From: Dehalococcoidia bacterium
GTDB lineage: Bacteria > Chloroflexota > Dehalococcoidia > UBA2979
Assembly: GCA_965247895.1 (NCBI GenBank)
Contig: OZ252046.1
Coordinates: 951,140 to 1,015,139, forward strand
Reading direction: 5' to 3'
Length of the DNA stretch: 64,000 bases
The position numbers and the translations under genes are program-made. Positions 1-44,000 of the stretch are shown piece after piece (position 1 is the first letter of the stretch; the number at the start of each line of letters is the position of its first letter). The notes under the pieces are model-generated. The model was not told where the DNA came from, did no database searches, and saw only the letters and a program-made list of their open reading frames with translations.

Positions 1-3000
1 TCACGATGATGGTGTCGCTGAGTGTCCCTGGGTCGGTGGCGGTGACGGTGACGGTGTGCGAGGGCACCGTCTCGTAGTCGAACATGGGGTTGGCGGCCAC
101 CCGTATCTGGCCGGTTGCGCTGTCCACCGTGAACTTGTCGGAGCCCGTCAGCGTGTAGCTCAGATTCCCTGCGTCCTCGGCGTCGTCGGCCACCACCCGC
201 TCCCCGACGGTGGCAGTGGCCCCTGCGTCCTCGGGCACGGAGCGCGTCGTGTTCGCAGCGGGGAACTCCGGGGCGGTGTTCACGGGCGGCTTGGCCTGGA
301 CACGGTTTCGCGAGACCGCGGAGATACTTATGTCCGTGTCCGGGCTGTATCCGTCCCTATACGTGGCGGTGGCGCGCAGGTAGTAACCGATGTCGCCTAC
401 GACCGGCGTGTAGCTGTCAGCCGTGGCGCCGCTGATCAGCTGCCAGCCGCTCCCCCGGCTCGTCGACCGCTCCCACTTCCACGTCGTCGACTGCACGATG
501 TCGGCGTCGGTCAGTGTCGCCGTGAACGGCGCCTCCACCTGCGGCTGCGGCGAGGAGAGGCCGAGCATCGCCCGTTCGTTCACATTCGTGACATCCACCG
601 TGACCCTCGTGACCGCTGAGCCGTTCGCATCCGTGGCCGTGACCTCCACTTCGTAGCTGTCCTTGGTCTCGTAGTTGAGGGCGCTCTCCGTCCGCAGCTG
701 GCCGCTGGTGGCGACGATCGCGAACGATGAGGCGTCGGCTCCGCCGAGCGTGTACGTGGTCGAGCCGTCCGTGGCCGCGGCCGTAACCGGCGGGCCGATG
801 TTCCTGTTCCGCGACGTGTTCTCCTCGACGGTGCGCGTGGTGCGGACGGACTGGAGCGCGAAGGACAGAGTCGCGATCGGCTCCGTCGAGAATTTGCCCG
901 TTCCCCGGATGCTCGTGATGACCCCCTGCGGGTCGGTGGCCGCGTTGCCCAGGGAGAACCCCGTGCCTTCCTCCGTGCCCGCGTCCCACGGGTAGAGGTT
1001 GACGGTGTGGGAGCGCAGCCAGCGGCCGCTGCTGTTGAGCAGGGGCAGGCCGGAAACGCCCACGAACCAGTCGGGGCTGGGGGCGACCATCGTGACCAGC
1101 GTGACGCGCGGGTGGGTGGTGGCAAGCGTGGGGTTGAGGCTCTGTGTGGCCGTTACCCCGCCCGTGTCCGTGCTGCCCTGGAACAAGCTGAGCGCCGTGG
1201 CCGGGTTGGCGCCGATGGCTGTCTGCACCTCGCTCCGCAGGGTCGTGATCGTTCCGTCCTCCGCCATCGACTCGACCCCGGCGCTGGCCGTCCCGCCGCT
1301 CGCGAGGAAGCTCACGCCTGCGTTGTGGACGGCGCCGGCGAGGCGGGAGAAGTGCGCGCCGCCGGGAACGCCGTCAGGCGTGACCTTGGCGTACCACTTG
1401 CCCTCGAACTCGACGTCATAGGTCGCTGTCGATGGGAACGGCGCGACGGGATCGCTCGCCGGGGGGGTCAGCGAGGTGTCTTGCCTCGTACGGGTCACCG
1501 TCACGATGTAGGTCCTGGTGCTTCCGTTCGCGGCTGTCACCCTGATGGTGATGACGTTCTGGCCCACCGACGGGTTCACCTGGTAACCGTCGGCATTGGT
1601 GTCGGCGTCGACGCGACCTACGAGCGTAGCCACGGCACCGGCATCGTTCTCGCTCGCGGTCACCGTGATCCCCGTCACGGTGTAGCCGACGGATGCCGTG
1701 TACCAGGTGACCTCAGTGTCGAAGGAGGGGCTGAGCCTTGCCCCGCTCAGTGACAGCGCGCTCAGGGTGGCGTCCGCGGAGAGGGGGGTGCCTGTGCCCG
1801 TGTCCGACCAGTCCCCGTCGCCGGCGCTGTTGGCTGCCCGCACCTCCACGTCGTAGGAGACGCCGTTGGTCAGCCCCGCGATGGTGTATTCCAGGTCGCC
1901 CGAGGTCCAGGCGATCACTTCGTCCCAGTTGGCGTCGGCCTTGTCCGTCGCGTCGGTGCGGATTGAGTGCACGTCGTAACGGGTAATGGCGGCGCCGCCG
2001 TTGGAGGCGGGCGCGCTCCATTGCACGGCGAGCTCCCCGTCGCCGGCGGTCACGGAAGAAACCCCCGGCACTCCGGGCACCACGGGGGGCTGCATCTGCT
2101 CGGCGGCCTCGCCGATGTTGTTATAGTTTTCGGCAGAGACGCGCACACTCGAGCCGGGCGCTGTGGCAGTCGTCTGGTGGGCGAGAGTCCCCGAAACATC
2201 GGTGATCTTCGCGGAACGGGTGTCGTCGTACTCCTGGTCCGCATCCTTCCACTCCACCCGGTAGGCGGTGATGGCTTCACCCCCGTCGTAGGCCGGCTTC
2301 TCCCAGGTCACCCGGCCGTCCGCGGCCAGGGCGACCGCTGCGGGAGCCTGGGGGACGCAGCCGCCGGCTCGCCATGGATTGCGGGTGGGGGCCCTGCCGT
2401 ACAGGGCCTCCGTTGCTCGCTGCCGATCGCAGTAGGCCCCGAATGCGTTCCGCAACGCGAACGCAGCCGCGTGTTTCCATGCCCCCACGCCCTTGACATC
2501 AGTCCACACCTTTTCGAGGTCGTACTGCTTGTCGTATTTCGGATCCGTTGAGGTGTCATAGGGAACGGTGTCGTCCTCGTAGGTTGTGTCGAACCAGGCC
2601 GGCATTGTCTTGGCGAGGACGCTGTTGATCATGGTCAGTGTAGTTGCAGAGGGCGTATCTCCTGTTCTGGAACAAGGAGGGAAGTACGTCGAAAGAGAGC
2701 TTGCCACGGTGCCGCTCTCGACAGCATCGGCATAGAGCTCATGGATCTGACAGCCGGTTCCGCCCGCTACGAGGTCTGCAAAGTAGAGCCACGCGATGCC
2801 GCGACCCTCGGAGTCTCGTCCCATAAGCCGCGCTCCGGCATTGTAGACGTGGCCCAGCTCATGGAGATAGACGCCTGTGTCAGATGCGGCGTTATTACCA
2901 ATGTCAACGCGAGTGACTTCACAGGCAACCAGAGTCCCTATTCTTCTCGAACTGCAATCCAGGAAGACCCTGCTGTCGGAGACTGTTGCACCAATTGGAG

Positions 3001-3510
3001 TGTTTAAACGCCGCATGTAATCGTACAGCTCGCGCACCCATGGGTCGTCTGCTTCGTATGCGGCAACAACCCCCGTCTTCAGGAAGTGACCTCGTTGCTC
3101 ACTTTCGGACTGGGTTTTGAACCCAGGCGTACGAAGCTTGACATCGGTACCCAGGGTGACGAGGAGGGCGTAGAGCGTGTCCGCAGTCAGTCCCGTCAAG
3201 TCGAAGGTGACGGAGGTGCCGTTGGTCATCTTGCTCGTCACCAGGTCGGCGCCGTCGGGCTGGGCCCTGTACTTGAGAGCAACCGTCTGCTCCGTCGAGC
3301 CGGGATTGGCGATGGTGACTGTCACGCTCGCCGTCGTTCGTCCGGTCTCGCCGAACTCCACGCCGGTGATGTTCCCGCTTGGCGCAGCCGGCAGGTCGTA
3401 GGCATAGATCTTGACCTTCGCCTCATCGCCCACCCAGAGGGTGTTCCCGCTGGAGGTGACGCCCCACGGCGCCCCATTCTCGCGGGCCAGTTGTATCTCC
3501 GGGGGGGCTG
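1..3510 (-). CDS. C-terminal portion of giant secreted surface protein A: FN3-like modules, HEXXH Zn-metallopeptidase-like region, spondin_N-like domain, cadherin-like modules. The 3' end lies beyond the window start. Same gene as 3322..5499 after a +1 frameshift at the G7 run 3501..3507.
   Basis: Minus-strand frame with codon first bases at positions congruent to 1 mod 3 is open from 3510 to position 1. Hand translation gives ...PEIQLARENGAPWGVTSSGNTLWVGDEAKVKIYAYDL (a propeller blade)...VYLHELGHVYNAGARLMG (HEXXH)...ATYDVEFEGKWYAKVTPDGVPGGAHFSRLAGAVHNAGVSFLASGG...SPDWFVGVSGLPLLNSSGRWLRSHTVNLYPWDAGTEEG (spondin_N-like)...YETVPSHTVTVTATDPGTLSDTIIV (cadherin-like). It is absent from the ORF track because there is no stop codon inside the window. 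Confidence 0.6.
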
Positions 3511-5499
3511 CCGATCGCCGACACCGGCGGTACCCAGGGCATAGGCGAATATCCTGTCCAGGGCGTCGTCGGCGACCCACAGCGCGGACCCGTTGGACCA
3601 CATGCCCCTGGGTTGCATGTAGGAGGTGGCGAGGTCGCCCTCTTTCGTTGTGTCGCGCGCTCCGAAGGTACCGGTGCTGCCGATGTTGTAGGCGAAGACG
3701 TGCTCCCGGACGTGGCCTGCTATCCACATCGTGGTTCCGTCGGACCACACCCCCCTCGGGTGGCCATTCTCGGGCGCTATCTCGAAGCTCTTCGCGGTGT
3801 CGAGCCTTCCGAAGGGGCTGCCTGAGAGCGAATACGCGTACACCTTGTCGTCCTGCTCGTCGACTACCCACAAGGTGCCGCTGTTCACGTAGACGCCGCG
3901 TGGAGCGGCGTTCTCGCCGTCGAGCACGAAGCTCTTCGAGCTGACGAAGCCCTTGTTGCTCAGGTTGTAGGCGTCGACGCGGTCGCTGCCCCCCGTGGCC
4001 CTGTCGTACACGACCCACAGGGTGGCGCCGTCGGTCCCGATGCCGCGCATCTGCCCGATCCCGACCAGGGCAAGGTCACGCTGCGCCGGCCGCACCAGCA
4101 GCTCCGCGGTGACCTCGGTCCCGTCGGCGAAGGTGCTGTCGAGTGAGGCCTGGACCACGAGGCGCGGCGCCGATCGCGCCCCGGAGAGCGTGAAGTCGAT
4201 GGTCTGTCCGCCTGTCGCGTTGGTCGTGGACCATGCATCGGTGAAGGGCTCGCGGTAACGCAGGTACACCGTCTTGCTGGGGTTGGGGTAGCTGATGTCG
4301 GCGCGAATGGTGGCGGCGGTCTGCGTAGCGGAGACGAGGGACAGCGCGGATACGCTCGGGTCCGGCTTCGGCTGGTAGTAGGCGAAGACCTTCGATCCGC
4401 TGCGGCGGCCGTCCAGGATCCAGAGATACTCCCCGTCTCCCCACATGTCGCTGGCTCCCAGTGAGTCGACAGCATTGGCGTGAGCGGTGTTCAGCGGGAT
4501 ATTCAGGTGCGGCAGCGGGATGCCGACCCTCAGATCGAGGGCGTAGAGCATCCGGTCCCGGCCGTCGACCGCCCACATCGTCTGACCGTCGGACCAGATG
4601 CCGCTCAGGGCGTAGCTGCCGTCCTTGTGCAGGGTGATGTCCTTCGCCGTGTCGCGTCCGCCATACGGGCGTTCGTAGGCATAGGCGTCGTGCTGAGGGT
4701 AAACGACCCAGAACGTGTCGCTGTTGGCCCAGATGCCCTTCGCGTCGGAGTGGCCGCGGGCGAGCCTGAATTCCCTGCTCGATTGCCGGGAGCCGTCCGA
4801 AAGCTGGTAGGCGTAGGCTCGGAATTGGGACCGGTCCACGGCGTACAGGTAGGTCCCGTCGGACCAGAGGCCCCCTGGGCTGTGGTTGCCGAGGCCTGGG
4901 GTGATGTCTTTCGCCGTGTCGCGGTCGCCGTGCTGGGCGGCCGGTGTGCGCTTGTAGGCGAGAATCGTCGTCGAAGTGCCAAGAGTAAACCCGTCGGAGA
5001 TGACCCAGAGCGTGTTGGCGTCTCCCGCGATGCCCGTGGGAAGGTCGCTTCCGGCCAACGTGATGTCGAGATGCGCCGGCCGGTTCTGGAAGGTGCTGCT
5101 CTCGACGCCGGTCGCGAAGGTCGAGTCCGCCGACACCTCGATGTCGTAGTAGGCGTTCGCCGCCAACGCCGTGAGGCTGAAGGTCACGTCCCCCGCTTGC
5201 GACGCGTTGGCGGTCCACAACAACGCTCCCCAGTCGTCCTTGTCATGGAGAGAGAGCCGCAGATAGAACGTTCCCATCCCACTGACCGTCGCGGTGGCGG
5301 TCGCGGTGGTCCGGGCGCTGCTCGCCACTGTGCCGGCACTCACGGTGGCGGTCTGGGCGGAGACCGATGCGACACGACCACTCAGGGCTGCAAACACGAC
5401 AACAAGCAGCACAATGCCTATCAGGGTTGCGGAACGCGGCAGAGTGGCGCTCATACCCGCGCTTCGTGCCGGGAGCAGCCCACCGTGTTGCCGGAGCAC
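3322..5499 (-). CDS. N-terminal portion of giant secreted protein A: signal peptide plus at least 10 divergent WSDG-type (PD40/TolB-like) beta-propeller blades. The C-terminal ~60 aa of this ORF are out-of-frame junk after the G7 frameshift.
   Basis: 725-aa ORF in the track. N-terminus MSATLPRSATLIGIVLLVVVFAALSG...AQTA looks like a signal peptide. Repeats such as GIWSDGQTMWAVDGRDRMLYALDL, GVWSDGTTMWIAGHVREHVFAYNI and GMWSNGSALWVADDALDRIFAYAL. The Arg-rich tail ...DRQPPRRYNWPARMGRRGASPP follows the G7 run. Confidence 0.7.
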   Translation of the reverse strand: MLRQHGGLLPARSAGMSATLPRSATLIGIVLLVVVFAALSGRVASVSAQTATVSAGTVASSARTTATATATVSGMGTFYLRLSLHDKDDWGALLWTANASQAGDVTFSLTALAANAYYDIEVSADSTFATGVESSTFQNRPAHLDITLAGSDLPTGIAGDANTLWVISDGFTLGTSTTILAYKRTPAAQHGDRDTAKDITPGLGNHSPGGLWSDGTYLYAVDRSQFRAYAYQLSDGSRQSSREFRLARGHSDAKGIWANSDTFWVVYPQHDAYAYERPYGGRDTAKDITLHKDGSYALSGIWSDGQTMWAVDGRDRMLYALDLRVGIPLPHLNIPLNTAHANAVDSLGASDMWGDGEYLWILDGRRSGSKVFAYYQPKPDPSVSALSLVSATQTAATIRADISYPNPSKTVYLRYREPFTDAWSTTNATGGQTIDFTLSGARSAPRLVVQASLDSTFADGTEVTAELLVRPAQRDLALVGIGQMRGIGTDGATLWVVYDRATGGSDRVDAYNLSNKGFVSSKSFVLDGENAAPRGVYVNSGTLWVVDEQDDKVYAYSLSGSPFGRLDTAKSFEIAPENGHPRGVWSDGTTMWIAGHVREHVFAYNIGSTGTFGARDTTKEGDLATSYMQPRGMWSNGSALWVADDALDRIFAYALGTAGVGDRQPPRRYNWPARMGRRGASPPAGTPSGWAMRRRSRSMPTTCRLRQAGTSPAWSSARPDERRRA

Positions 5500-6329: not shown

Positions 6330-6513
6330 CGCCCATGACCGAGCAGGCGGCCGCGCTGACGCCCCGCACACTTGACTTCACTCGCTGCGGCATACGGCCG
6401 GGAGCCAGTCGATCCTGGCCGGCACCGACCTGCTGACGGTTTCGCGGCGGCTCGGGCAAGCGTCCGCGTCGTTCACGATGGATATCTACGGGCACATGTT
6501 GCCGGGGCAATAG
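6330..6513 (+). pseudogene. Degraded C-terminus of a tyrosine recombinase (phage integrase): box II and catalytic Tyr region, disrupted by an indel
   Basis: One frame reads ...LHSLRHTAGSQSILAGTDLLTVSRRLGQASASFTMDIYGHMLPGQ* (HxLRH...Y motif), ending at a stop at 6511..6513. The preceding ALTPRTL segment is in another frame, with a stop between them. Removing a 14-nt stretch would restore ALTPRTLRHTAGS. Confidence 0.5.
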
Positions 6514-6551
6514 GGCCCTGCGGCCGAGGCGCTTGACCACTTGATCAGGTG

Positions 6552-6617
6552 AATGGCCCCAGAATGGCCCCAGATTGGCCCCAGATTGGCCCCAGGATGG
6601 CCCCAGGATGGCCCCAC
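6552..6617. repeat. 11-bp tandem repeat, 6 units (aatggccccag / attggccccag / gatggccccag), between the integrase remnant and the tRNA-Glu 3' end
   Basis: Read directly at 6552..6617. Confidence 0.8.
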
Positions 6618-6664
6618 TCGAGCCGACTGAACGAACGCATGCGGCCGAAAAGGCCTGTGAACGT

Positions 6665-6740
6665 TGGTGCCCCCAAGGGGGTTCGAACCCCTGTTTCCAC
6701 CTTGAAAGGGTGGCGTCCTGGTCCCCTAGACGATGGGGGC
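6665..6740 (-). tRNA. tRNA-Glu (anticodon TTC)
   Basis: Reverse complement of 6665..6740 is GCCCCCATCGTCTAGGGGACCAGGACGCCACCCTTTCAAGGTGGAAACAGGGGTTCGAACCCCCTTGGGGGCACCA. 7-bp acceptor stem, anticodon loop CTTTCAA, T-loop GGTTCGAA, 3' CCA. Confidence 0.9.
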
Positions 6741-21850: not shown

Positions 21851-22621
21851 ATGACCGACACGGAGCAGGACCGCGAACAGACACTCGAGGGCAAGGCGGC
21901 GCTCGTGACCGGAGGCGCCTCCGGCATCGGCGCGGCCACGGTCGAGGAGCTCGCGCGGCGCGGCGCGCGTGTGGCGGTGCTGGACCGCGACGGCGAGGGC
22001 GCAGCGCGTAGCGCCGCAGCCGCCGAGGCGCTCTCGGGCGAGGCGCTGACGCTCCCCTACGACCTCGCCGACACCGCCGGCATTCCCGGCGTCGTGCGCC
22101 AGGTGCTGGACGCCTTCGGGCACATCGACATCCTCGTCAACTGCGCCGGGATCAGCGCGCGCGGCGGGCTGCTCGACCTGGCGGAGGCGGACTGGGATCG
22201 CGTCCACGTCGTCAATCTCAAGGCGCCGATGCTGCTCATGCAGGAGGTGGCGAGGCACATGATCGAGCGCGGCGAGGGTGGGCGGATCGTGAACGTCAGC
22301 TCCAGCTCGGCGTTCCGCGCGCGCTCACACGTCGCCTACGCAAGCTCGAAGGCGGCGATCGTCCAACTCTCCCGCAGCGCCGCCGCCGACCTCGCGCCGT
22401 ACGGCATCAACGTCAACGCGGTCGCGCCGGGGCTGACCCGCACGGGCATGACAGGCGACAGGGACATCGACGAGGACGCGCGCGACGGGCACCTCTCGAA
22501 TCTCTTCGGGCGCGCCGCCGAGCCGCCCGATGTCGCCGCGGCGATCGTCTTCCTCTGCCTGCCGGAGAGCCGCCAGATCACCGCGCAGACGATTCACACC
22601 TCGGCTGGCCTCGTCGTCTGA
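21851..22621 (+). CDS. SDR-family oxidoreductase (3-oxoacyl-ACP reductase-like)
   Basis: Motifs TGGASGIG, NCAG and YASSKAA. Confidence 0.85.
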   Translation: MTDTEQDREQTLEGKAALVTGGASGIGAATVEELARRGARVAVLDRDGEGAARSAAAAEALSGEALTLPYDLADTAGIPGVVRQVLDAFGHIDILVNCAGISARGGLLDLAEADWDRVHVVNLKAPMLLMQEVARHMIERGEGGRIVNVSSSSAFRARSHVAYASSKAAIVQLSRSAAADLAPYGINVNAVAPGLTRTGMTGDRDIDEDARDGHLSNLFGRAAEPPDVAAAIVFLCLPESRQITAQTIHTSAGLVV

Positions 22622-23678: not shown

Positions 23679-24476
23679 CTACGGCAGATCCGCAGGCGTC
23701 AGCTCGAACTCCTCGAGCATCTCCGCGGTCGTCACGATCCGGCCGCTGATCATCGACGGCTCCGTGACGGCCAGCCGCAGGCAGGCCTCGGCGACGTGCT
23801 CGACCGGGGTGACGCGGTCCTTGTTCGCCTCCGTGATGAGCCCGAAGTACTCGACGCCCGGGGTGGCGATCAGTCCCGGCTGGATCGCGTTGACGGCGAT
23901 CGCCGGCTGCTCGGCCGCGAACCCGGTACTGAAGCGCTCCAGCGCCGCCTTGCACATGCCGTAGATCGTGCTGCCCCTGCCCTCCGTGCCCAGCTCCGAG
24001 TGCAGCGCGGCGCCGGATGACATGTTCACGATCGCCCCCCGCTCCCGCTCGCGCATCCCGGCCGCGACCAGCTGGGAGAGGTGCACGGCGGCGTGCACCT
24101 GGATCTCGAACATCACGCGCTCCTGTTCGGCGGGGAACGCATCGGTGGGGTTGTACCAGGTCACCGCGCCGTTGTTGACGAGGATGTCGACCGGACCGAG
24201 TTCGGCCTCTGCCGTCTCGATCAGGCGCTCGCGATCCTCGGCGGAGACGAGGTTGCAGGGCACCGCGAGCGCCTCCCCGCCCGCCGCCTCGATGCGCGCG
24301 ACGACGCCGTTGAGGCTGCCGGAGAGCAGCCGGTGGTCGCCCTCGTTCACGGTTCGCGCGGCCAGCGCGACGCGCGCGCCCTCCATCGCGTAGCGCACCG
24401 CGATCGCCTCACCGATGCCGCGCGAGGCCCCGGTGACCACCGCGACGCGCCCTTCGAGCTGTCCGCCCTCAGCCAT
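23679..24476 (-). CDS. SDR-family oxidoreductase
   Basis: Motifs TGASRGIG and NNGA. Start at MAEGG. Confidence 0.8.
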   Translation of the reverse strand: MAEGGQLEGRVAVVTGASRGIGEAIAVRYAMEGARVALAARTVNEGDHRLLSGSLNGVVARIEAAGGEALAVPCNLVSAEDRERLIETAEAELGPVDILVNNGAVTWYNPTDAFPAEQERVMFEIQVHAAVHLSQLVAAGMRERERGAIVNMSSGAALHSELGTEGRGSTIYGMCKAALERFSTGFAAEQPAIAVNAIQPGLIATPGVEYFGLITEANKDRVTPVEHVAEACLRLAVTEPSMISGRIVTTAEMLEEFELTPADLP

Positions 24477-24636
24477 TTTCGTCCCTCCCATGCATATTCA
24501 AGCCACCCGCTCAGCCCGGATGCCGGACAGCGGCGGCCCCATCCCGATATGCTGTCGCAGGTCTCGCCCGCGCTGCGGGCCTGACGTTACGACACCCGTG
24601 ACCAAGCCACGAGGGGAACACGAGGGGAATCCGCAC

Positions 24637-25428
24637 ATGTCGCTCGAGAACAAGGTCGCACTCGTCGCCGGCGCCAGCCGCGGCATCGGCGCGGACGTCG
24701 CGAAGTACCTCGCCCGCGCCGGCGCGAAGGTCGCCGTCGCCGCCCGCACCGTCGAGGTCACCGACCCGCGCCTGCCCGGCACGATCCACTCGGTCAGCGC
24801 GGAGATCGCGGCCGAGGGCGGGACGGCGCTCCCGGTGGTGATGAACCTGCGCGACATCGAGAGCATCACGGGCGCCGTCGACCAGGTGATGGCCGAGTGG
24901 GGCCAGATCGACATCCTCGTCAACAACGCCGCGATCTTCATCCCGGGCGGGATCGTCGATGCGCGCGAGCGCCACATCGAGCTGAGCATCGCGATCAATC
25001 TCGTCGGCCCGATCGTCTCGATGCGCGCCGTGGTGCCGCACATGCAGGCGGCGGGCGGCGGGCACATCATCAACGTCTCCTCGCGCGGCTCGACCTTCCC
25101 GGGCGTCGGCCCCTACACCGAGGAACAGATCGCCCGTGTTGGCGACCTGCTGTACGGGCCGGAGAAGTCCGGCCTGGAGCACTTCTCGCAGCGCCAGGCG
25201 ATGGCGCTGCAGGCCGACAACATCGCCGTCAACGTGCTCTCGCCCAACGGCCGTGTGAGGACGCCGGGCAATCTCTTCTTCGAGAACGACCCGGAGAACC
25301 CGGACCTCGACTTCGAGACCGCCGACGCGATGGGCAAGGCGACCGTCTGGATCTGCGAGCAGGACGCGAGCAGCTACACCGGCAACATCGTCTACGACGA
25401 GGATCTCGTGGGAGAGCACAACCTCTAG
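24637..25428 (+). CDS. SDR-family oxidoreductase
   Basis: Motifs AGASRGIG and NNAA. Start MSLENK inside track ORF 24415..25428. Confidence 0.8.
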   Translation: MSLENKVALVAGASRGIGADVAKYLARAGAKVAVAARTVEVTDPRLPGTIHSVSAEIAAEGGTALPVVMNLRDIESITGAVDQVMAEWGQIDILVNNAAIFIPGGIVDARERHIELSIAINLVGPIVSMRAVVPHMQAAGGGHIINVSSRGSTFPGVGPYTEEQIARVGDLLYGPEKSGLEHFSQRQAMALQADNIAVNVLSPNGRVRTPGNLFFENDPENPDLDFETADAMGKATVWICEQDASSYTGNIVYDEDLVGEHNL

Positions 25429-25438
25429 CGTCCGCCTC

Positions 25439-26631
25439 GTGGCCCGGCCCGGCCTGCGGCGAGCCTGCGGCGAGCCTGCGGCCCGGCGCTCGCCGCGCTG
25501 CTGCTCCTGCTCGCCGCCTGCGGCGGGCTGTTGCCCGGCGAGGATCGCGAGGCCTCAGCGACTCCGTCCACACCCGCCCCGGCGGCGGCCACCCCGGCGG
25601 CGACGTCACCCTCGGCTGCGACGGCCTCGCCCACGCCGCGCGCCGCCTCGCCGGCTCCGTCCGCGACGCCGACGGCCACACCGACACCCGCGGTGGCGCC
25701 GACCGAAGAGCCAATCACGCTGACCGTCGCCGCCGTCGGGGACCTGATGTTCGCGCGGGACATCGTGACGCTGATGGAGCAGTTCGGCCCCGCCTACCCG
25801 TTCGAGCGGATCGCGCCGCTGCTGGCCGGGAGCGATCTGCTGATCGGCAACCTCGAGGGCACGTTCACCGAGCGCGGGCAACCGCTCGACAAGTACTACA
25901 CCTTTCGCGCTCCGCCGGTGCTCGCCGAGACGCTGACCGCCGCGGGTTTCGATGCCGTCTCGCTGGCGAACAATCACGCGCTCGACTTCGGAACCGAGGG
26001 GCTGCTCGATACGCTCGACGCGCTCGACACGCTCGGCGTCGCGCACTTCGGCGCGGGCCTCGATCGCGGCGAGGCGGAGGCGCCACTGATCCTGGCCGCG
26101 GATGGCGCGTTCGTCGCGCTGCTCGGCTTCAGAGGGGTAGCGTCCTCGGTCTTCGCGGACGGGGACGCGCCCGGCGTCGCCCGCGCCGAGCTCGAGGCTG
26201 TGGCCTCATCGGTCGGCTCGATCGCGCCCGCGGTGGACTTCGTGATCGTCGTCTTCCACTTCGGGACCGAGTACGACGCCGTGCCGACCGAGCAGCAGCG
26301 CGCACTGGCCGCGGCCGCCGCCGATGCGGGCGCCTCGCTGGTGATCGGCCATCACGCCCACACGCTGCAGCCGTGGGAGCGCCGCGGGAATGCGCTGATC
26401 CTCTACGGCCTCGGCAACTTCGTCTTCGACCTGGACCGCGACGATCTCGCGACGCTCGGCGAGGGGCCGTTCGCGACCGTCGTCGCGATTGTCGAGCTCA
26501 GCAGCGCCGCCCCTCCGCGAGTTCGCTTCCGGCCTGCATACATCGATCCGGACGAGAACCGCCCACGGCCCGCCACCGCCGCGGAGCGCGCACGCATCCT
26601 CGAAGCGCTGTCGGAGATCGGGGCTGACTGA
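25439..26631 (+). CDS. CapA/PGA_cap-family (poly-gamma-glutamate biosynthesis-like, metallophosphatase fold) lipoprotein. The GTG start plus lipoprotein signal peptide are put out of frame with the body by an 11-bp tandem duplication.
   Basis: GTG at 25439 reads MARPGLRRACG... If one copy of cctgcggcgag (25453..25474) is removed, it continues in frame as ...PALAALLLLLAACGG (lipobox LAAC) into the 25531..26631 ORF. Body motifs: AVGDLMF, LEGT, SLANNHALD, GHHAHTLQP. Confidence 0.7.
25453..25474. repeat. 11-bp tandem duplication (cctgcggcgag x2, plus a partial third unit) that causes a frameshift
   Basis: Read directly. Confidence 0.8.
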
Positions 26632-26658
26632 CCGCCTCACGGGAGCCGCAACGGGGGC

Positions 26659-28128
26659 ATGTTACGCTGCGGCCACGCCCCGTTCGCGCGAGCCGATGGA
26701 CGCGCAGCGTCGCTCGCGAGGCGCCATACGCGGGGCCGGGGAGGCCGTTTGAGCGACGAGCGCGCCCCGGGCGCCCGCGCGGCACTCGATTCCGCGACGC
26801 TGCGGAGTCCGGAGCGGCCGGGTACCTGGGCCTCCCTCAAGATCACGAACTTCCGTTACCTCTGGCTCGGCCAGGCCGGCCACGCCGCCGGCATCTGGAT
26901 GGAACAGGCCGCGCGGCCCTTCCTGGTCCTCGATCTCACGGACGGGTCGGCGAGCCACGTCGGCGGCGTGCTCGCCGTGCGAACGGTTCCGCAGTTCATC
27001 TTCGGCATGTGGGCCGGCGTGATCGCCGACTCGTTCGACCGCCGCCAGGTGCTGCTGATCGGCAAGGCGGCGACGTTCGTCCTGAACATCGCCTTCGCCG
27101 TGATCCTCGCGCTCGGGCTACTCGAGCTCTGGCACATGTACGCCTACAGCGTCGTCCGGGGCACGCTGATGGCGTTCGACCAGCCGGCGCGCATGGGCCT
27201 CGTGCCCTCCGTGGTTCCCGACACGCATGTCACGAACGCGGTCGCGTTGATGAGCGCGACGCAGAACTCAATGCGCATCCTGGGGGCCGCGAGCGGGGGC
27301 ATCCTCTACGCGGTGTTCGGCGCGACCGGGGCGTTCGCGCTGATCGCCGCCGTCTACACCGTGCCGGTCGCGGCCACGTACCTGCTGCAGACGACACCGA
27401 TGACGAGCGCCGTCACCCGCAGCGCGAGCGGCCTCGCCGGCGGGTTGATCGAGGGCATGCGCTACTGCTTCTCGCACGCCTCGATTCGCGGCGTGCTGCT
27501 GCTCTCGATGATCTACTTCATGTTCGGGATGTCGTTCCTGCAGGTCTTCTCGCCGCTCTTTGCCGAGAAGGTCTTCAACATCGGCAGCGCCGGCTTCGCC
27601 GGCATGACCGCGCTGATGGGAGCGGCCGCCCTGCTCGCCTCGCTGCTGATCGCCAACCGGCAGCCGGATCGCCTCGGTGCGATCCTGCCGATGATCACCA
27701 CCGTCTTCGGCGTGGTGCTGGTCATCTTCTCGCTGACCAGCTACATCCCCGGACCGACCGGGCTCGTGATCCCGTTCGCGATGCTGGCGCTGCTGGGCGC
27801 GCTGCAGACCAGCTACATGGCGCTCTCGCGCTCGGCCCTGCTGCAGACCGCGCCCGCCCAGATGCGCGGCCGCGTCTTCGGCGTGCTCACGCTCGATCGC
27901 GCCTTCATGACCGCGGGCGCGGCGAGCGCCGGGTTCCTCTCCGATGTAGTCGGCGTGCAGCCCGCGCAGATCGCTTTCGGCATCGTCTGCGCCCTCGGCG
28001 GCATCCTGATCTTCGCCGTTGCGGGCGAGTTCCGGCGCGCACGCGTCGGGGCGCACTACAACGTGCCCACGAGCAGCGAGGGTCAGCGCAGCGACGCCAG
28101 CGCCAGCGGAGAGGCCGCAGAACGCTGA
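26659..28128 (+). CDS. MFS transporter (MFS_3 / EntS-like)
   Basis: 12 hydrophobic segments. Start uncertain. Confidence 0.75.
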   Translation: MLRCGHAPFARADGRAASLARRHTRGRGGRLSDERAPGARAALDSATLRSPERPGTWASLKITNFRYLWLGQAGHAAGIWMEQAARPFLVLDLTDGSASHVGGVLAVRTVPQFIFGMWAGVIADSFDRRQVLLIGKAATFVLNIAFAVILALGLLELWHMYAYSVVRGTLMAFDQPARMGLVPSVVPDTHVTNAVALMSATQNSMRILGAASGGILYAVFGATGAFALIAAVYTVPVAATYLLQTTPMTSAVTRSASGLAGGLIEGMRYCFSHASIRGVLLLSMIYFMFGMSFLQVFSPLFAEKVFNIGSAGFAGMTALMGAAALLASLLIANRQPDRLGAILPMITTVFGVVLVIFSLTSYIPGPTGLVIPFAMLALLGALQTSYMALSRSALLQTAPAQMRGRVFGVLTLDRAFMTAGAASAGFLSDVVGVQPAQIAFGIVCALGGILIFAVAGEFRRARVGAHYNVPTSSEGQRSDASASGEAAER

Positions 28129-35655: not shown

Positions 35656-37826
35656 TCAGGAGCCTCCCGTGCCCGCACTCGGGAGCTCGGGCGCCTTGAG
35701 CGCGCACTCCTCGCGCAACCAGGACGTGACGCCATCGGCCGACACCAGGAGCCAGCCCACGCAGCGCCCAACTCCCTGACCGAGTACCTCGACCTCCGTG
35801 CCGTCCAGCCAGCCGCCGACGAGTCGTGCACCATCGGCGCAGTCGATACGGTGCGCGACACCCCTGCCGCCCGTATTCCCGATGATCCTCAGAGCCTCCG
35901 GCCCCACTGCCGCAGGCGCCGCGAATTCGACCAGATACGTCCCCCGCACCCACGAGCTGGCGCCGTCCGCCTGGACCCACAGCCAGCCCACGCAGCGCCC
36001 AACCCCGTGCGCGAGCGCCTCGACCTGCGTGTCGTCCAGCCAGCCGCCGCCGTCCGAGCGTCGCGCATCATCGGCACAGTCGTCGCGCTGCGAGACGCCG
36101 TCGCCGCCGGTATTCCCAATCAGCCACCAGATCGTCGGGGCCAGCGCGGGAACACCGCCCGAGTCGACGACCTGCTCGGCGCGCGCCCACGAGCTGACGG
36201 CGTCCGCCCGCACCCAGAGCCAGCCCGTGCAGCGCCCAACCCCCTGAGCGAGAATCTCGACCTCCGTGCCGTCCGGCCAGACGCCGCCGTCCGAGCCTCG
36301 CGCATCCTCGGCACAGTCGCTGCGGTGCGAGACGCCCTCGCCGCCCGTGTTGCCGATCAGCCTGCGTGGCCCCGGATCCGGCGGCTCGACCGGCTCCGCT
36401 GTCTCGACCGGCTCCGCCGGCTCGTCCGGCTCCAGCGTCCCGTCCGGCTCCGCTGTCTCGACCGGCTCCGCTGTCTCGACCGGCTCCGCTGTCTCGACCG
36501 GCTCCGCTGGCTCGTCGGGCTCCGCTGGCTCGCCGGGCTCCGCTGGCTCGTCGGGCTCCGCTGGCTCGTCGGGCTCCGCTGTCTCGACCGGCTCCGCTGT
36601 CTCGACCGGCTCCGCTGTCTCGACCGGCTCCGCTGTCGCCACCGGCTCCGCTGTCTCGACCGGCTCCGCTGTCTCGACCGGCTCCGCTGTCTCGACCGGC
36701 TCCGCTGTCTCGACCGGCTCCGCCGTCTCGACCGGCTCCGCTGCATCTTCGCGGCCTGGAGGGTGCATGATTCGCACTCGGTAGACACGCGAGCGATGAC
36801 CATCTTCGGAGGTGACGGTGACCGTGATCTCCGCGATCTCCTCCAGCGCCAGCTGATGCCCGTTCTCCGGATTCCCATCTGCGTCATCGGGAGCGATCAC
36901 CACGGTCGCTCCCGGCCGCATGGCGCGTGCATCAATGACTACGCGGCCGGTCGCGACCCCTTCGTAGCCGGTGCGGCTGCTTGTGAAGTCGCCAATCTGG
37001 ACGCCGACCAGTCTCAGCAGGGCGAGGCGGGTGTCCGCGCTCGCGCGCAGCTCGGTGGTGAAGTAGACGCGGTCGTCGGCGAGGTCGCCGACGTAGATCA
37101 GGCCTCCATCGGACCAGAGACCTCGCGTCTCTCCGTTCTCGTTGCGGACCCTGAACTCCTCGTCACGGACGCGCACGAGGTCGTCTCCCTGCAACTGATA
37201 CGCGAACAACCTCGCGCTGCCCCTCTCGGAGACCAGGATCACGTACCCATCCGACCAGAGCCCGTGCGGGTCGTTGTTGGCCGGATCGAGCGAGTAGACG
37301 CCGAGCGTTTCCCCGGTCGCAGGTCGTAGCTGAAGAGACTGTCCGTGCCGCCATCCAGCACCCACATCGTGTCGCCGTCGGACCAGATGCCTCGGGCGTG
37401 GGCGTTGCGTTCGTCGAGCCTGATGTCCCGCTCCGGAAGCGGCGTCCTGGTCTCCATGTCGTAGGCGAAGACCCGGTCCTGCCCGCTGTCGGAGACCCAG
37501 GCCGTCTCGCCGTCGGACCACAGGCCGCGCGGGGCCACGTTGCGCCTGGCGAGCTTGAAGTCGAGCTCCTCGAGGCGCTCGCGGCTCTCGATGTCGTAGG
37601 CAAAGACGCCGTCGTCGGCCCCGACTCCGTTCCAGGCTACCCACAGCGTCTCGCCGTCGGACCAGAGTCCCGTCGTGACGCCGCAGCCGGGTTGAGGAGG
37701 GTCAAGACTGCAGGTGGCTCCCGAGGCTGCCGGAACCGCGCCACCCAGATGCGCGAACAGGAGAACCAGAGCAACTATTGCCGAGCTGGCCGCAAGCCGG
37801 GCATACGTCCTCGCCTCGACCGCCAT
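35656..37826 (-). CDS. Giant secreted surface protein B: signal peptide, WSDG beta-propeller blades, 18-bp-unit acidic tandem repeat (PVETAE)n, three C-terminal SH3b-like Cys-containing domains. A single-base frameshift near 37305..37325 splits it into track ORFs 37239..37826 and 35656..37644.
   Basis: N-terminus MAVEARTYARLAASSAIVALVLLFAHLGG. Blades GLWSDGETLWVAWNG...FAYDI and GIWSDGDTMWVLDGGTDSLFSYDL. At the junction one frame reads ...DSLFSYDLRPGKR and the other ...RPATGETLGVYSLDPANNDPHGLWSDG. C-terminal repeats IGNTGG[DE]GVS[HQ]R.DC..DAR.S.GG.W.DGTEVE.L..GVGRC.GWL.V.ADG..SW.R. Confidence 0.65.
36376..36750. repeat. About 20 tandem copies of an 18-bp unit (gtctcgaccggctccgct and variants) encoding (PVETAE)n/(PDEPAE)n inside gene B
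   Basis: Read directly. Coding low-complexity repeat, not CRISPR (units are contiguous, no spacers). Confidence 0.8.
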
Positions 37827-38006: not shown

Positions 38007-41000
38007 CTAGTCTCCGGCGCCCGTACCCGATCCGGGGGTGTACTCGACCACGTACTGCTCGCGCACCCACGAGGTGACGCCGTCCGCCTGCACACGCAGC
38101 CAGCCGGCGCAGTCGCCGCTGCCCTCCTCGAGGACCTCGACCTCCGTGCCGTCGGACCAGCCGCCGATCTTGGACACCCGCGCGCCATCGGCGCAGGCGC
38201 TGCGGTACGAGACGCCGTCCCCGCCCGTGTTCGCGATCACCATCCAGATCTCCGGCGCCGAGGCCATGCCGCTGGACTCGACCACGTACTGCTCTCGCAC
38301 CCACGAGCTGACGCGGCCAGCCTGCACACGCAGCCAGCCCGCACAGTCGCCGCTGCCCTCCTCGAGTATCTCGACTTCCGTGCCGTCGTACCAGCCGCCG
38401 ATCTCGGAGAGGCGTGCGTCGTCGGAGCACCGGTTGCGGTGCGAGACACCGTCGCCGCCCGTGTTCCCGATCACCCACCGGATCTGCGTGGCGGCAGCGT
38501 CCTCCGTAGCCGGGGTCTCATCCGCAGCCGGGGTCTCATCCGCAGCCGGGGTCTCATCCGCAGCCGGGGTCTCGTCCGCAGCCGGGGTCTCGTCCGCAGC
38601 CGGGGTCTCGTCCGCAGCCGGGGTCTCGTCCGCAGCCGGGGTCTTGTCCGCAGCCGGGGTCTCGTCCGCAGCCGGGGTCTCATCCGCAGCCGGTTCATCG
38701 TCCGTGGCACTCGGCGTCGGCGCAGCCTCGGCGGGCCCGAGCAGGTATTCCTCGCGCACCCACGAGGTGACCCCGTCGGCCTCCGCCCAGAGCCAGCCGG
38801 CGCAGCGCCCGCGGCCGTCGGCGAGCACCTCGATCTCCGTGCCGTCTGCCCAGCCGCCGATCTCGGAGAGGCGCGCGGCATCGGCACACTCGTTGCGGTG
38901 CGAGACGCCATCGCCGCCCGTGCTCCCGATCGCTCGCCCGGTCTGCTCGCCCGCGGCGGCGGGAGAGAACCCGAGAACGTAGTCCGTGTGCACCCACGAG
39001 GTGGCATCGTCGGCCTGTACCAGGAGCCAGCCCTCGCAGCGCCCGCGGCCCTCGCCCAGCACCTCGACTTCCGCGCCGTCCGACCAGCCGCCTACCGCGG
39101 AGACGCGTGCCTCAGCAGCGCAGTCGGTGCGGTGCGAGACGCCGTCGCCGCCGGTGTTGCCGATCACTGGCTGGGCCTGCGTATCCGGCGCCACGCCTGT
39201 ACCTGGCGTTGGCGTCGGGGCCGGCGTGGCGGTGGGCGTGGGGGCCGGCGTGGCGGTGGGCGTGGGGGCCGGCGTGGCGGTGGGCGTGGGGGCCGGCGTG
39301 GCGGTGGGCGCCGGGGCCGGCGTAGCGGTGGGCGCCGGGGCCGGCGTGGCGGTGGGCGCCGGGGCCGGCGTAGCGGTGGGCGCCGGGGTCGGCATCGGCA
39401 GATCGTGCTGGGCGACGAACGGTGTGCTGGGAGGAACGCCCTCGGGGAACAGATCCACGAACGGGCGGTTCACGAGCTCGGTCCCCTCGATGAGCAGCGG
39501 CACCCACTCCCCTTCGGGGTCGTCCCAGACCGCTATCAACTCGAACTCGCGCATGCACTCCTGGAGCTCCGCTACGCTCCCGCCCGCGTAGATGGTGAGA
39601 TCGAAGCGGCCTCCCCTCACGCCGATCAGGCACTCGGCGGGCGTCGGGAGAGCGCGCTGCGCGACGAACGGAGTGCTGGCGGGAACGCCATCGGGGAACA
39701 ACGCGACGAACGGGCGATTCACGAGCTCGGTCCCGCCGATCAGCAGCGGCACCCACTCCCCTTCGGGATCATCCCAGACCGCCATCAACTCGAACTCACG
39801 CATGCAGTCCCTGAGCGCCGCCAGGCTCCCGCCCGCGTAGATGGTGAGGTCGAAGCGGCCTTCGGTCAGGCCAATCAGGCACTCGCCCTCGGGCTCCGCG
39901 ACTACCGGCGCCTCGGTGGGCGTCGGCAGAGCGCGCTGGGCGACGAACGGAGTGCTGGCGGGAACGCCATCGGGGAACAACGCGACGAACGGGCGATTCA
40001 CGAGCTCGGTCCCGCCGATCAGCAGCGGCACCCACTCCCCGTCGGGATCGTCCCAGACCGCCATCAACTCGAACTCGCGCATGCAGTCCCTGAGTTCCGC
40101 CAGGCTCCCGCCCGTGTAGATGGTGAGGTCGAAGCGGCCTTCGGTCAGGCCAATCAGGCACTCGCCCTCAGGCTCCGCGGCTACTGGCTCCTCGATCGGC
40201 GGCTCGACAACCGGGGGCTCCTCGATCGGCGGCTCGACAACCGGGGGCTCCTCGATCGGCGGCTCGACGACCGGGGGCTCTTCGACGGGCGACTCGACAA
40301 CCGCCACAATCTCGATCTGGACGCGGTAGGTCCTGGTCCGGCTGCCGTCCTCCGAGGTCACCGTGACCGTGATCTCGCTGCCGTCCAGCAAGACCTGGTG
40401 CCCGTTCCGCGCGTTGCCGTCCGCGTCGTCGGGCGCGATGACGATCGTGGCGTCGTCCTGCACCGCCACGGCCGTGACCGTCGTCTCGGTCGCGCCATCG
40501 GCGGGGATGCCCGTGTACTCGGTGCGGTAGCTCGCGAACTCGCCGATCTCGACGTCGCTCAGCGTCAGCGAGGCGAGCCGCGCGTCGAACGCGGCCGGCA
40601 TGTTGTAGGTGTAGATCTTGTCGTCGTTGGCATCGACGACGTACATCAGGCCGCCGTCGGACCAGATGCCGCGCGGGCTGTTGTTGCCGGCGCCCCTCAG
40701 CTCCGTGAAGTCCTCGTCGGATTCGCGAGCGAGCCCGCCGTTCTCGAGGTGGTAGGCGAAGATCTTCCGCTCCCCGTCGTCCGAGACCCAGATCGCCACG
40801 CCATCGGACCAGATGCCTTGCGGATCGTCGTTCGCGCTCGCCAGCGCGAACTCGCCGAGGCTTTCGCCGCTGGCGAGGTCATACCTGACGATGATGTCCC
40901 TGCGGGCATCGAGCACCCACATGGCGTCGCCGTCCGACCAGATACCGCGGGCATCGCCGTTCCTGGAGGACAGAACGAACTCGGCATCCCCGACGCGGTC

Positions 41001-44000
41001 GCCGCTCTCCAGGTCGTAGGCGAAGAGCCGCTCCTGGCCGCTGTCCGAGACCCACATCGTCTCGCCGTCGGACCAGACGCCGCGGGGGGCGCGGTTGTCT
41101 TCGGCGAGCTCGAACTCGAGGTCCTCAAGGCGGTCGCCGCTCCAGCGGTCGTAGGCGAAGACGCCGTCGTTGGCGCCGTCGCCGTTCTGGCCCACCCACA
41201 GCACCTCGCCGCGGCCCCAGAGACCCGTCGGATCGTCGTTGGCGGGATCGAGGTCGATGTCACCCGTCACGTGCCACTCGAAGTCCTCGTCGCTCGGGGT
41301 GGGGCCGATGGGGGTAAAGGGGATGAAGGGGATGGTGCCGCCACCGGTGTTGGTGTTCCCGCCGGTGTTCCCGGGGTTGTCCCAGTTGTGCTCGATGACG
41401 TCGGTGACGGTGATCGTCACCGTGATCTCGGCGGTCGCGAGGGACGGATCCGTCGCCGTGACAATCACGGTGTAGCTCGACTTCTCCTCGTAGTCGAGGA
41501 AGGTCGAGGTCCGCAACTGGCCGGACAGCGGGACGATAGCGAAGGAGTCTCCGTCCGTACCGCTGAGGCTGTAGGTCAGCACCTTGCCTTCGGGATCGGT
41601 GGCGATGACCGGGAGCCCGATGTTCACGTTCGGGGCCGTCTCCTCCGGCACGCTGCGCTGTCCCGTTTCGCTCGAGGGGAAGGTGGGGGCGTTGTTGCTG
41701 GTCGGCTCGGCGAGGACCGCGTTCAGTGTCCGCTGGACCTGGTCGGCACCGGTCACCGCGTCGGTGTAGTCGGCGGTGACGCGGATGACGTCGCCGACAT
41801 CGTCCGCGACCGGCGCGTACGAGGACGATGAGGTATTCGGCGTGGTCTGATGCGTCAGGGTCGTCCAGGTGACCTGGTCCGGGGACTTCTCCCAGGTCCA
41901 TGTCGTGACGGACACGCCGCCGTCGGGGTCGTCCACGGTTGCGAGCAGCGCCGTGCCCACCTGCGGTTGCTCCGAGGAGAAGAGGAGCTGGCCGTCGTCC
42001 TCGGCGTTGGTGATCGTGACGGTGATCTGCTCGATCGTCATGCTCTCGCGGTCACCGCTCCCGCTCATCGCCATGACCGTCACGCGATAGACGTTACTGT
42101 CGTCGACGCTGCGGGGATCCTCGTAGTCCGCGCCGTGCGCCGCCCTGAAGGACAGCACTCCGGCACTGGTGATCGCGAACATCCGCCCGTCGTCCTCGGG
42201 AACTGCAGCCTTGAGGATGAAGGTAACGCTGTCCTGGGTATCGGGATCCTCGGCCACCACCGTCCCGACGGCCTGCGTGTTCTCCGCGACGGTGAGTCCG
42301 GGCGTGCTGAACGTCGGGCTGTTGTTGGTGATGTTCTTGACGGGGAGATCGGTCAGCGTCCCCGCAGGAGTTCCGTCGTCGTCCTGCAGCGGGCTCGTCT
42401 GCGGTGGCTGGTAGCTCACGGTGACCGGCTCGCCACCGACGACCGCCGACGCCAGGGTCAGCGTCACCGTCATCCCGCTGACCGACACGGTGTTCACCGC
42501 GCGTGGCACGGTGTCCACCTTCACCGTGTACGCCGGCTCCGAGGCCTCATCGAGCGCCTTGTTGTAGGTGAGCGTCAGCGTTTCGCCGTCCACCACTGCC
42601 GAGTCATTGGTCGAGACAAGCGACGGGGCACGTCGGTGTTGTTCGTGATGGGAACGTCCGTGAGCGGCGCCGCGTCTTCCCCGTCCAGGTCTTGCAGGGG
42701 ATCCGTCGAGGGCGGCACGTCGTAACTCAGACGCACGGTCTGGCCAGCCAACACGGGCGTGGAGAGCATCAGCGTTACGGTCACCTCGCTGATCTCGACG
42801 TCGCTGACCGTGTGCGTCGTGCTGTCGGCGGTCACCGTGTACGTGGTCGTCGCCGGCTCCGAGTCCGGGTCGAGGGCCTCGCTGTACATCAGCGTCAGCG
42901 TGTCGCCGTTGACGACGCCGCTCAGGTGCACGTAGACGGGCGGGTCCGGCTGGGTGCTGTTCGTGACGGGGTGGTCCCTGAGCGCCACCGCGTCGGCGCC
43001 TTCGGAGTCCTGCACCGGGCTCTCGTCCGGCGTGTAGCTCACGAGGGCGATGTCGCTCGCCACCACGGCCGGGTCGAGCGTGAGCTTCACGGTGCTCCCG
43101 CTGACCACCACGGCGGTCACCACGTGGTCACTCGTCGAGTCGTTGACCGTGACGGTGTAGTCCTCCGGGTCCGGCTGCGAGCCGGTGTCGAGCGCCTCGC
43201 TGTAGGTCAGTGTGAGCGTGTCGCCGTCGACGGTCGCGTCGGAGATCGACGGCGGCGCGTTGGTGTTGGTGCTCGACCCGCAGACGGTGAGGCCGTAGAA
43301 CTCGAAGTTGTCGGGGTCGACCATGAACCGAAGGTCGGTGGTCTCGACATCGAGCAAGAGCGGCGGCACGCAGCCTGTCCATGCGTTGGCGCCAAGATTC
43401 AGCCTTCGCAGTCCGGGCAGCAGTTTCTCGAGTTCCGATGGGATCGATCCCGTGAGCAGATTGTCACGCAAGTCCACGTCCGTGAGCGGCAAGCTGCCAA
43501 GTCCCGGTGGGAGAGTCCCCGTGAACCCGTTCCCATAAAGCGTCAAGGATCCCAGCTCAGAAAGTTCGGTGATCTCTGTCGGTATGGGCCCGGAGAATCT
43601 GTTCCCATGCAGGCTCAACGTCATCAGCTTGGTGAGGTTCTTGATCTCGGCCGGGATCGTTCCCGTGAGGCCGAGTCCACCGTGGATGTTCTTGTTGCCG
43701 TGGAGACGCAGCGTGCGCAGCTCCGTGAGGTCCCATATCTCCGACGGTATGTCGCCGTCGAGGTTGTTTCCCCCTAGATCCAGGTGCTGCAACGTCTCTT
43801 TGAGCTTCCCCAGCTCCGACGGGATCCCGGGTTCGTAGTACAGATTCCGGGGGTCGTCGTAGTTGAGTGGACTGCTGAACCTGTTGTAACTGAGATTGAG
43901 CGTTACCAGATTCGGAAGGTCCCCGAGTTCCGGAGGGATCGGACCGGACAGCTGGTTCTGCTTCAGGTTTATCGTGACCAAACCCGTGAGCACCCCGATG

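Follow-up and report, generated by a model that had tools for sequence, protein, structure and literature searches.

The window analysed here, a 64,000-nucleotide stretch of a Dehalococcoidia bacterium with a G+C content of 69%, contains a capA-like gene flanked by a short-chain dehydrogenase (SDR) gene and an MFS gene. The product of the capA-like gene is a member of the PGA_cap (CapA-like) family. Its 366-aa ORF matches PF09587 PGA_cap over residues 65–300 (E 3.8e-71, 240 bits with a cutoff of 27, profile positions 1–254 of 255), and the 'poly-gamma-glutamate synthesis protein' of PDB entry 8gq9 is matched with E 8.8e-24. The features of the locus are:

24637..25428, plus strand: short-chain dehydrogenase gene, 263 aa, ending in TAG 25426..25428 (Pfam adh_short, E 1.7e-35; a 263-aa orthologue is present in relatives L001–L004 and L029–L031)
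25439..25441, plus strand: conserved GTG start, which no longer shares a frame with the gene body (start of MAR[PF]GL.. in all orthologous proteins; DNA alignment)
25439..25723, plus strand: out-of-frame ORF of 94 codons, MARPGLRRACGEPAARRSPRCC..., an Arg/Pro-rich nonsense sequence without a signal peptide (ORF list; lipobox and hydrophobicity test negative)
25452..25482, plus strand: perfect tandem array, 2.8 copies of the 11-bp unit GCCTGCGGCGA (Tandem Repeats Finder; alignments with 8, then 11 relatives)
25465..25467, plus strand: in-frame CTG inside the second repeat unit (body-frame translation; product passes the lipobox rule)
25468..25521, plus strand: predicted signal-peptide n-region, h-region and lipobox RRACGPALAALLLLLAAC, in frame with the body (translation, lipobox rule, conserved in orthologues)
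25510..25521, plus strand: lipobox LAAC, with the predicted lipidated Cys codon at 25519..25521 (translation, lipobox rule)
25522..25722, plus strand: Pro/Thr/Ala-rich linker, variable in length through in-frame indels and atypical in codon-position GC (orthologue comparison)
25531..25533, plus strand: TTG, the first canonical start in the body frame, giving a 366-aa product without a signal peptide (ORF list; no lipobox or hydrophobic segment)
25723..26430, plus strand: intact PGA_cap domain of the CapA-like, metallophosphatase superfamily (PF09587); the gene's stop codon is at 26629..26631

The capA-like gene is conserved and syntenic among relatives. Judged from its sequence, its product is probably a lipid-anchored extracytoplasmic protein in which a linker of about 65 residues separates the anchor from the CapA-like domain. 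It resembles the CapA/PgsA proteins of poly-gamma-glutamate synthesis in its strong PF09587 match and in being, by prediction, extracytoplasmic and membrane-tethered, and differs from them in that its anchor is a lipobox and not an N-terminal transmembrane helix. Unlike the PgsBCA/CapBCA system, it lacks pgsB-like and pgsC-like neighbours: among called genes and Pfam matches, none was found within ±5 kb (±3 kb for L029) in six orthologous loci. The neighbours in orthologous loci are instead dehydrogenases, an alpha/beta hydrolase, an MFS transporter, a GNAT protein and a Zn-ADH. Because these neighbours are missing and the anchor is a lipobox, membership in the family does not imply a role in capsule synthesis. 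As a separate observation on the protein collection, the 90%-identity cluster represented by the CapA-like protein P0005 includes many 263-aa dehydrogenase sequences (P0121, P0122 and others), which suggests either a bridging fused or mis-called sequence or a clustering artefact.

Reading frames at the start of the capA-like gene

Tandem Repeats Finder describes the array at 25452..25482 as having period 11, 2.8 copies, 100% matches, a score of 62 and the consensus GCCTGCGGCGA. The surplus unit can be assigned to 25452..25462 or to any register up to 25473. When the window is aligned with 11 orthologous loci, a clean 11-bp insertion appears in the window only, which rules out chance as the explanation for the array. 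The earlier note had described an 11-bp tandem duplication here, and both the repeat search and the alignment uphold it. The unit that it named, cctgcggcgag, is the GCCTGCGGCGA repeat in another register; its count of two copies has to be revised to 2.8, since the ancestral sequence already held 1.8.

The duplication falls after the GTG and ahead of the signal peptide's hydrophobic core, and displaces only GTG 25439 and codons 2–5 (ARPG). Despite it, the signal-peptide core, the lipobox LAAC, the Pro/Thr/Ala linker and the PGA_cap domain all remain in one intact frame. This body frame, ...RPPRGPARPAASLRRACGPALAALLLLLAACGGLLPGEDRE..., is open from TAG 25426 and runs uninterrupted to 26631; according to the ORF list it holds no ATG, GTG or TTG between that TAG and TTG 25531. 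The duplication had been proposed to separate both the GTG and the signal peptide from the body. That is correct for the GTG and incorrect for the signal peptide, whose h-region and lipobox are still in frame with the body. The related proposal that the body can start only at TTG 25531 is right for canonical starts, and overlooked the in-frame CTG at 25465.

We evaluated the possible products with a rule-based lipoprotein test that combines a PROSITE PS51257-like regular expression, a lipobox pattern, Arg or Lys in the n-region and Kyte-Doolittle hydrophobicity. The criterion was [LVI][ASTVI][GAS]C with the Cys within residues 15–35, preceded by a positively charged n-region and a hydrophobic h-region. 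Removing one unit gives the reconstruction MARPGLRRACGPALAALLLLLAACGGLLPGEDRE..., already read in the earlier note, which passes the test, runs into PGA_cap and is identical to the N-terminus of orthologue P0001. By the same patterns, the 94-aa product of GTG 25439, the product of TTG 25531 (MPGEDREASATP...) and that of GTG 25693 all fail, so that in the window as it stands no product of a canonical start qualifies as a lipoprotein. The only near-cognate start that restores a complete lipoprotein signal peptide is CTG 25465, whose hypothetical product MRRACGPALAALLLLLAAC passes.

How ribosomes reach this start bears on what the duplication would do. No Shine-Dalgarno-like motif was found within 25 nt 5' of GTG 25439. 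The neighbouring genes have clear ones: the dehydrogenase ATG is preceded by AGGGGA, the MFS TTG by GGAGG. Given that the GTG lacks such a motif and stands 10 nt past the TAG of the upstream dehydrogenase, its native translation likely proceeds by translational coupling with that gene. Promoter and terminator scans of 24300..26900 found nothing.

Two other routes into the body frame were considered and dismissed. A programmed -1 ribosomal frameshift would use a slippery site of the form X XXY YYZ, and none occurs between 25439 and 25482. That readthrough of the upstream TAG would lead into the body frame is a coincidence of the duplication: the relatives do not carry the 11 bp, so TAG and body share a frame in the window only.

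Other tandem repeats occur in the window. A perfect two-copy 11-bp tandem, CACGAGGGGAA, lies at 24608..24629 just 5' of the dehydrogenase ATG 24637 and doubles the Shine-Dalgarno-like AGGGGA; it is not private to the window, there being no window-only indel at that place. A six-copy 11-bp array of GAATGGCCCCA and variants occupies 6551..6616. On one side of it a tyrosine-recombinase-like ORF survives as a C-terminal remnant (...FTMDIYGHMLPGQ*, ending at 6513, with no long ORF upstream), and on the other lies a tRNA-Glu(TTC) gene at 6665..6740 on the minus strand; the region 6400..6740 gives the impression of an integrated element whose edge has decayed. Long in-frame tandem repeats with periods of 18, 24, 30, 42 and 234–279 bp lie inside very large ORFs (36385..36743, 38042..40317 and 50128..50450), for example a minus-strand ORF of 1529 aa at 38007..42596. 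A partial minus-strand ORF at 2..4075 carries Spondin_N, cadherin and fn3 domains. Together these ORFs probably encode large surface or adhesin-like proteins. Also on the minus strand, ORF 3322..5499 passes its coding signal at about 3320..3520 to the ORF that runs off the window start (to 4075), the two overlapping by about 200 bp. Perhaps one long gene is frameshifted here, or perhaps two genes overlap; a Pfam search with the upstream part gave no match. A GC3-based scan of the whole window for frameshifts was too noisy, its suspicious junctions being mostly ordinary gene overlaps of 4–22 bp.

Unit number in orthologous loci

We compared the window with 11 orthologous, fully syntenic loci, all annotated as Dehalococcoidia/Chloroflexota metagenome-assembled genomes, GTDB representative genomes included. 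DNA identity to the window is 91–94.6% for L001–L008 and L029, 97.3% for L030 and 96.7% for L031, the last two being at same-species level. Every one of the 11 carries GCCTGCGGCGA-GCCTGC[GT]G, or 1.8 copies, and the window has 11 bp more. A check of unit counts in relatives, which the earlier note had proposed, thus finds one unit fewer than in the window at all 11 loci.

Proteins tell the same story. A homology search with the in-frame translation returned relatives of 74–94% identity. P0001 is the best match. Among full-length orthologues, some 28 distinct proteins have the one-unit N-terminus MAR[PF]GLRRA.GPALA.LLLLLAAC, about 15 of them contributed by cluster members. Since the 11 loci and the ~28 proteins are all one-unit, their sequences identify this state as ancestral and conserved, and the window's extra unit as derived and private to this genome. 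A search of JGI metagenome contigs with CCCGGCCTGCGGCGAGCCTGCGG returned 0 matches and hence no further alleles. Exact matching of the window's 366-aa and 312-aa capA-like products and of its 263-aa dehydrogenase to recorded proteins likewise gave none.

Database proteins of 312 and 294 aa were considered as other alleles with the signal peptide switched off. We rejected them, the short calls being start choices of the gene callers. In L004 and L031, both called at 312 aa, DNA alignment shows the one-unit 5' region intact, and in L004 a direct check found the full-length, 392-aa-type ORF; the 294-aa call in L006 likewise keeps the one-unit 5' region, and this locus matches the 392-aa query over residues 1–392. 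Gene callers often start the capA-like gene at an internal GTG (MAPTEEP...) or ATG (MFARD...), as in L004, L006 and L031. Probably the unusual codon-position composition of the Pro/Thr/Ala linker misleads the callers, and proteins called in this way lack the signal peptide together with a portion of the domain's first strand.

One relative does have a disrupted allele, with a lesion of another type:

L029 3150..3190 (about window 25680): 8-bp insertion CGACGCCT in the linker of the orthologue (alignment)

The inserted sequence is not a clean tandem copy, and the signal-peptide frame of L029 stops after 91 codons. The insertion explains the alternative-frame N-terminus of database protein P0147. 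It makes L029 the second disrupted capA-like allele among the 12 genomes, independent of the window's, and these two, 11 bp and 8 bp, are the only private frameshifting indels in six mapped genes across 7.2 kb of 12 genomes. A third private frameshifting event falls outside those six genes: L002 has a 1-bp G insertion near the end of a dehydrogenase gene (orthologue of window 21851..22621, at about window 22605), and there the dehydrogenase is called as a 610-aa fusion with the next alpha/beta-hydrolase gene (L002 316..2148). Two of three frameshifting events thus fall in about 4% of the aligned length, which suggests a hotspot, though n=2 carries no weight. Such a hotspot might reflect mutation, selection (if the surface protein is dispensable) or technical error, the last because the capA-like 5' stretch reaches 80–88% G+C at every codon position. 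The linker itself shows many in-frame length changes among orthologues.

Origin and consequence of the extra unit

Short direct repeats are a classic slippage substrate, and their misalignment in replication yields a duplication of exactly one period. The ancestral sequence offers such a substrate. In the window's closest matches for this stretch it reads CCCG-GCCTGCGGC-GA-GCCTGCGGC-CC, a 9-bp direct repeat with an 11-bp period that spans codons 5–11 and is a chance product of L-R-R-A-C-G codons read in two registers. Direct repeats of 8–9 bp able to seed slippage are present in relatives. The repeat itself is not conserved, as three relatives have a degenerate second copy, GCCTGCTG.

In our reading, the conserved lipoprotein gene has probably suffered a recent frameshift that is private to this strain, and is not a programmed switch. 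Replication slippage, or another misalignment between the 9-bp copies, would have added one 11-bp unit. Coupling would then feed ribosomes through GTG 25439 into the 94-codon nonsense frame, leaving signal-peptide core, lipobox, linker and PGA_cap intact and without a canonical start before TTG 25531. The expected outcome is that the exported, lipid-anchored enzyme is lost or reduced more than 30-fold. CTG 25465 might supply a trickle at best; alternatively, initiation at TTG 25531 would yield a cytoplasmic protein that lacks the signal peptide.

The age of the lesion can be gauged from private codon changes, that is, codons at which the window differs from all relatives. The capA-like body has 17 synonymous and 9 nonsynonymous ones (4 of the 9 in the linker), similar to the MFS gene with 12 and 6; the two dehydrogenases and the GNAT gene have 10, 3 and 3 synonymous changes and 1 nonsynonymous change each. 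Neutral decay would be expected to give about 2.5–3 nonsynonymous changes per synonymous one. Long neutral decay is not seen, because the private changes are mostly synonymous and similar to those of the MFS gene. The body also contains no stops and no further indels. A gene body free of other lesions and a mostly synonymous set of changes would make the event recent. More strictly, three alternatives fit: a lesion that is young on the scale of the window's private branch, a gene that remains in use, or a lesion that does not exist in the cells.

That last alternative is the main rival to a slippage frameshift. It holds that the organism has an ordinary one-unit gene and that the 11 bp were introduced when reads were assembled or polished, for instance because reads of strains living together were mixed. 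The surroundings give it some substance, as the array lies inside a tract of another lineage:

25206..25615, plus strand: mosaic tract, L001/L005-like (41 consecutive informative sites)

This tract extends from the 3' end of the dehydrogenase gene through the start and signal peptide of the capA-like gene and takes in half of its linker. Apart from the duplication it is nearly identical to L001, whose L001/L005 lineage is about 93% identical overall, and both its flanks match L030/L031 (about 97%). It may be a genuine recombination import of 0.4–0.5 kb or a mixed-strain consensus, and a duplication within 410 bp of possibly mixed-strain sequence invites suspicion. Two related strains can share a sample, L030 and L031 coming from one assembly; the relatives are metagenome assemblies, several at 3–16x coverage; and such assemblies contain lesions of their own, the 8-bp frameshift in the capA-like 5' region being in a 9x genome (L029) and the 1-bp insertion that fuses neighbouring genes in an 8x genome (L002). 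A 5' stretch so GC-rich and repeat-rich could be technically error-prone. The gene is otherwise perfect and looks selected, and an intact body with few nonsynonymous changes is equally what an artefact or a still-expressed gene would give. Against all this, the 12-genome alignment reveals no other private indel of the window in 7.2 kb, so its consensus does not look error-prone. The usual read errors are homopolymer and 1–2-bp indels, and an exact 11-bp tandem copy is atypical of them. At 19 bp, the ancestral repeat region does not reach the length of the k-mers that assemblers commonly use and should not mislead one. The points at which the haplotype switches lie about 245 bp and about 150 bp from the duplication; as it sits well inside the tract, we ruled it out as the junction of a chimeric assembly. 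We consider an artefact unlikely, with a share of the probability that still deserves respect, and regard the duplication as a real mutation with somewhat better than even confidence, at least as much as we place in the frameshift reading as a whole.

A real duplication could be more than a lost frame. Besides pseudogenisation and a sequencing or assembly stutter, the earlier note had offered a slipped-strand ON/OFF switch, in which gain and loss of the 11-bp unit would toggle lipoprotein export on and off, or between high and low. One feature of contingency loci is present: the 11-bp period stands between the start codon and the h-region, so unit number sets the reading frame. The gene body is intact, a perfect tandem duplication can revert by exact loss of a unit, and independent frameshifts occur in the first ~250 bp of the gene in 2 of 12 genomes, with 1 other frameshifting private indel in the rest of the 7.2 kb. 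Two further features of such loci are absent. Unit number is not polymorphic, the 11 related loci having 1.8 copies or a degenerate equivalent and the ~28 proteins agreeing, and there is no long tract, 1.8 to 2.8 units being far below known contingency tracts. The degenerate GCCTGCTG copy in three relatives also speaks against a maintained repeat, and the L029 lesion involves no change of unit number at the array site. With a single state in all relatives the proposal was not borne out: phase variation is unsupported because copy number does not vary among them, and we judge a switch very improbable. A broader version, in which soil Dehalococcoidia use or tolerate a slippage-prone 5' end to uncouple the lipoprotein reversibly from its start, with standby expression from CTG and L029 as a second ON/OFF instance, seems to us more improbable still.

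Another possibility differs from the favoured reading in outcome only: the allele would be attenuated and not null, initiation at CTG 25465 giving a normal precursor MRRACGPALAALLLLLAAC... at a low level. That product passes the lipobox rule with two Arg in its n-region, and n-region length varies among more distant orthologues. CUG does support some initiation in E. coli, at about 0.02–3% of AUG (bioRxiv 10.1101/063800), a figure from that organism; in this phylum its use would be a conjecture. CTG 25465, though, has no Shine-Dalgarno-like motif 5' of it, and ribosomes from GTG 25439, 26 nt upstream, would cross it in another frame. We find attenuation improbable, if less so than a switch.

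Known systems and meaning for the family

One of the closest known systems is provided by the opa genes of Neisseria, in which CTCTT pentamer repeats in the leader-peptide coding sequence undergo slipped-strand phase variation (PMC3745409). The array shares with opa a period indivisible by three and a location in the leader-peptide coding sequence of a surface protein gene (a predicted one here), and in both cases unit number sets the frame of the start codon (PMC3745409). The differences lie in tract length and variability: opa tracts are built of many units, their number differs between strains and inside cultures, and switching occurs at about 1e-3 per generation, whereas the array considered here goes from 1.8 to 2.8 units and is invariant in 11 related loci, with one genome differing.

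Also among the closest known systems are spontaneous tandem duplications that are exactly reversible, described for pneumococcal cap3A, cap8E and tts (Waite et al. 2001, 2003, as cited in PMC4022640), and the similar spontaneous duplications in phcA of Ralstonia solanacearum (Poussier et al. 2003, as cited in bioRxiv 10.1101/2023.04.27.538605). As the citing articles present them, these cases share with ours a perfect short duplication inside an ORF, the lack of a long prior tract, inactivation of the gene (predicted in ours) and reversibility in principle. They differ in that, by the same accounts, recurrence and reversion were shown experimentally, while here there is one allele in one assembly. 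Copy-number switching of tandem repeats is also on record in a high-GC genome, that of M. tuberculosis (PMC12817950). The category that fits the evidence best is an ordinary slippage frameshift, or incipient pseudogene, between short direct repeats: a private event with the rest of the gene unchanged, from which our case shows no substantive difference.

The finding opens no new mechanism and settles no open question. It does carry a caution for annotation, in that gene callers will report a truncated 'CapA family protein' without a signal peptide at this locus, and the intact gene of the same clade is also often called short (312 and 294 aa in L004, L006 and L031). If the duplication is real, one strain of an uncultured Dehalococcoidia species would have just lost, or nearly lost, a conserved and syntenic gene product predicted to be a surface lipoprotein, which would add one modest observation to what is recorded of gene loss and differences among strains.
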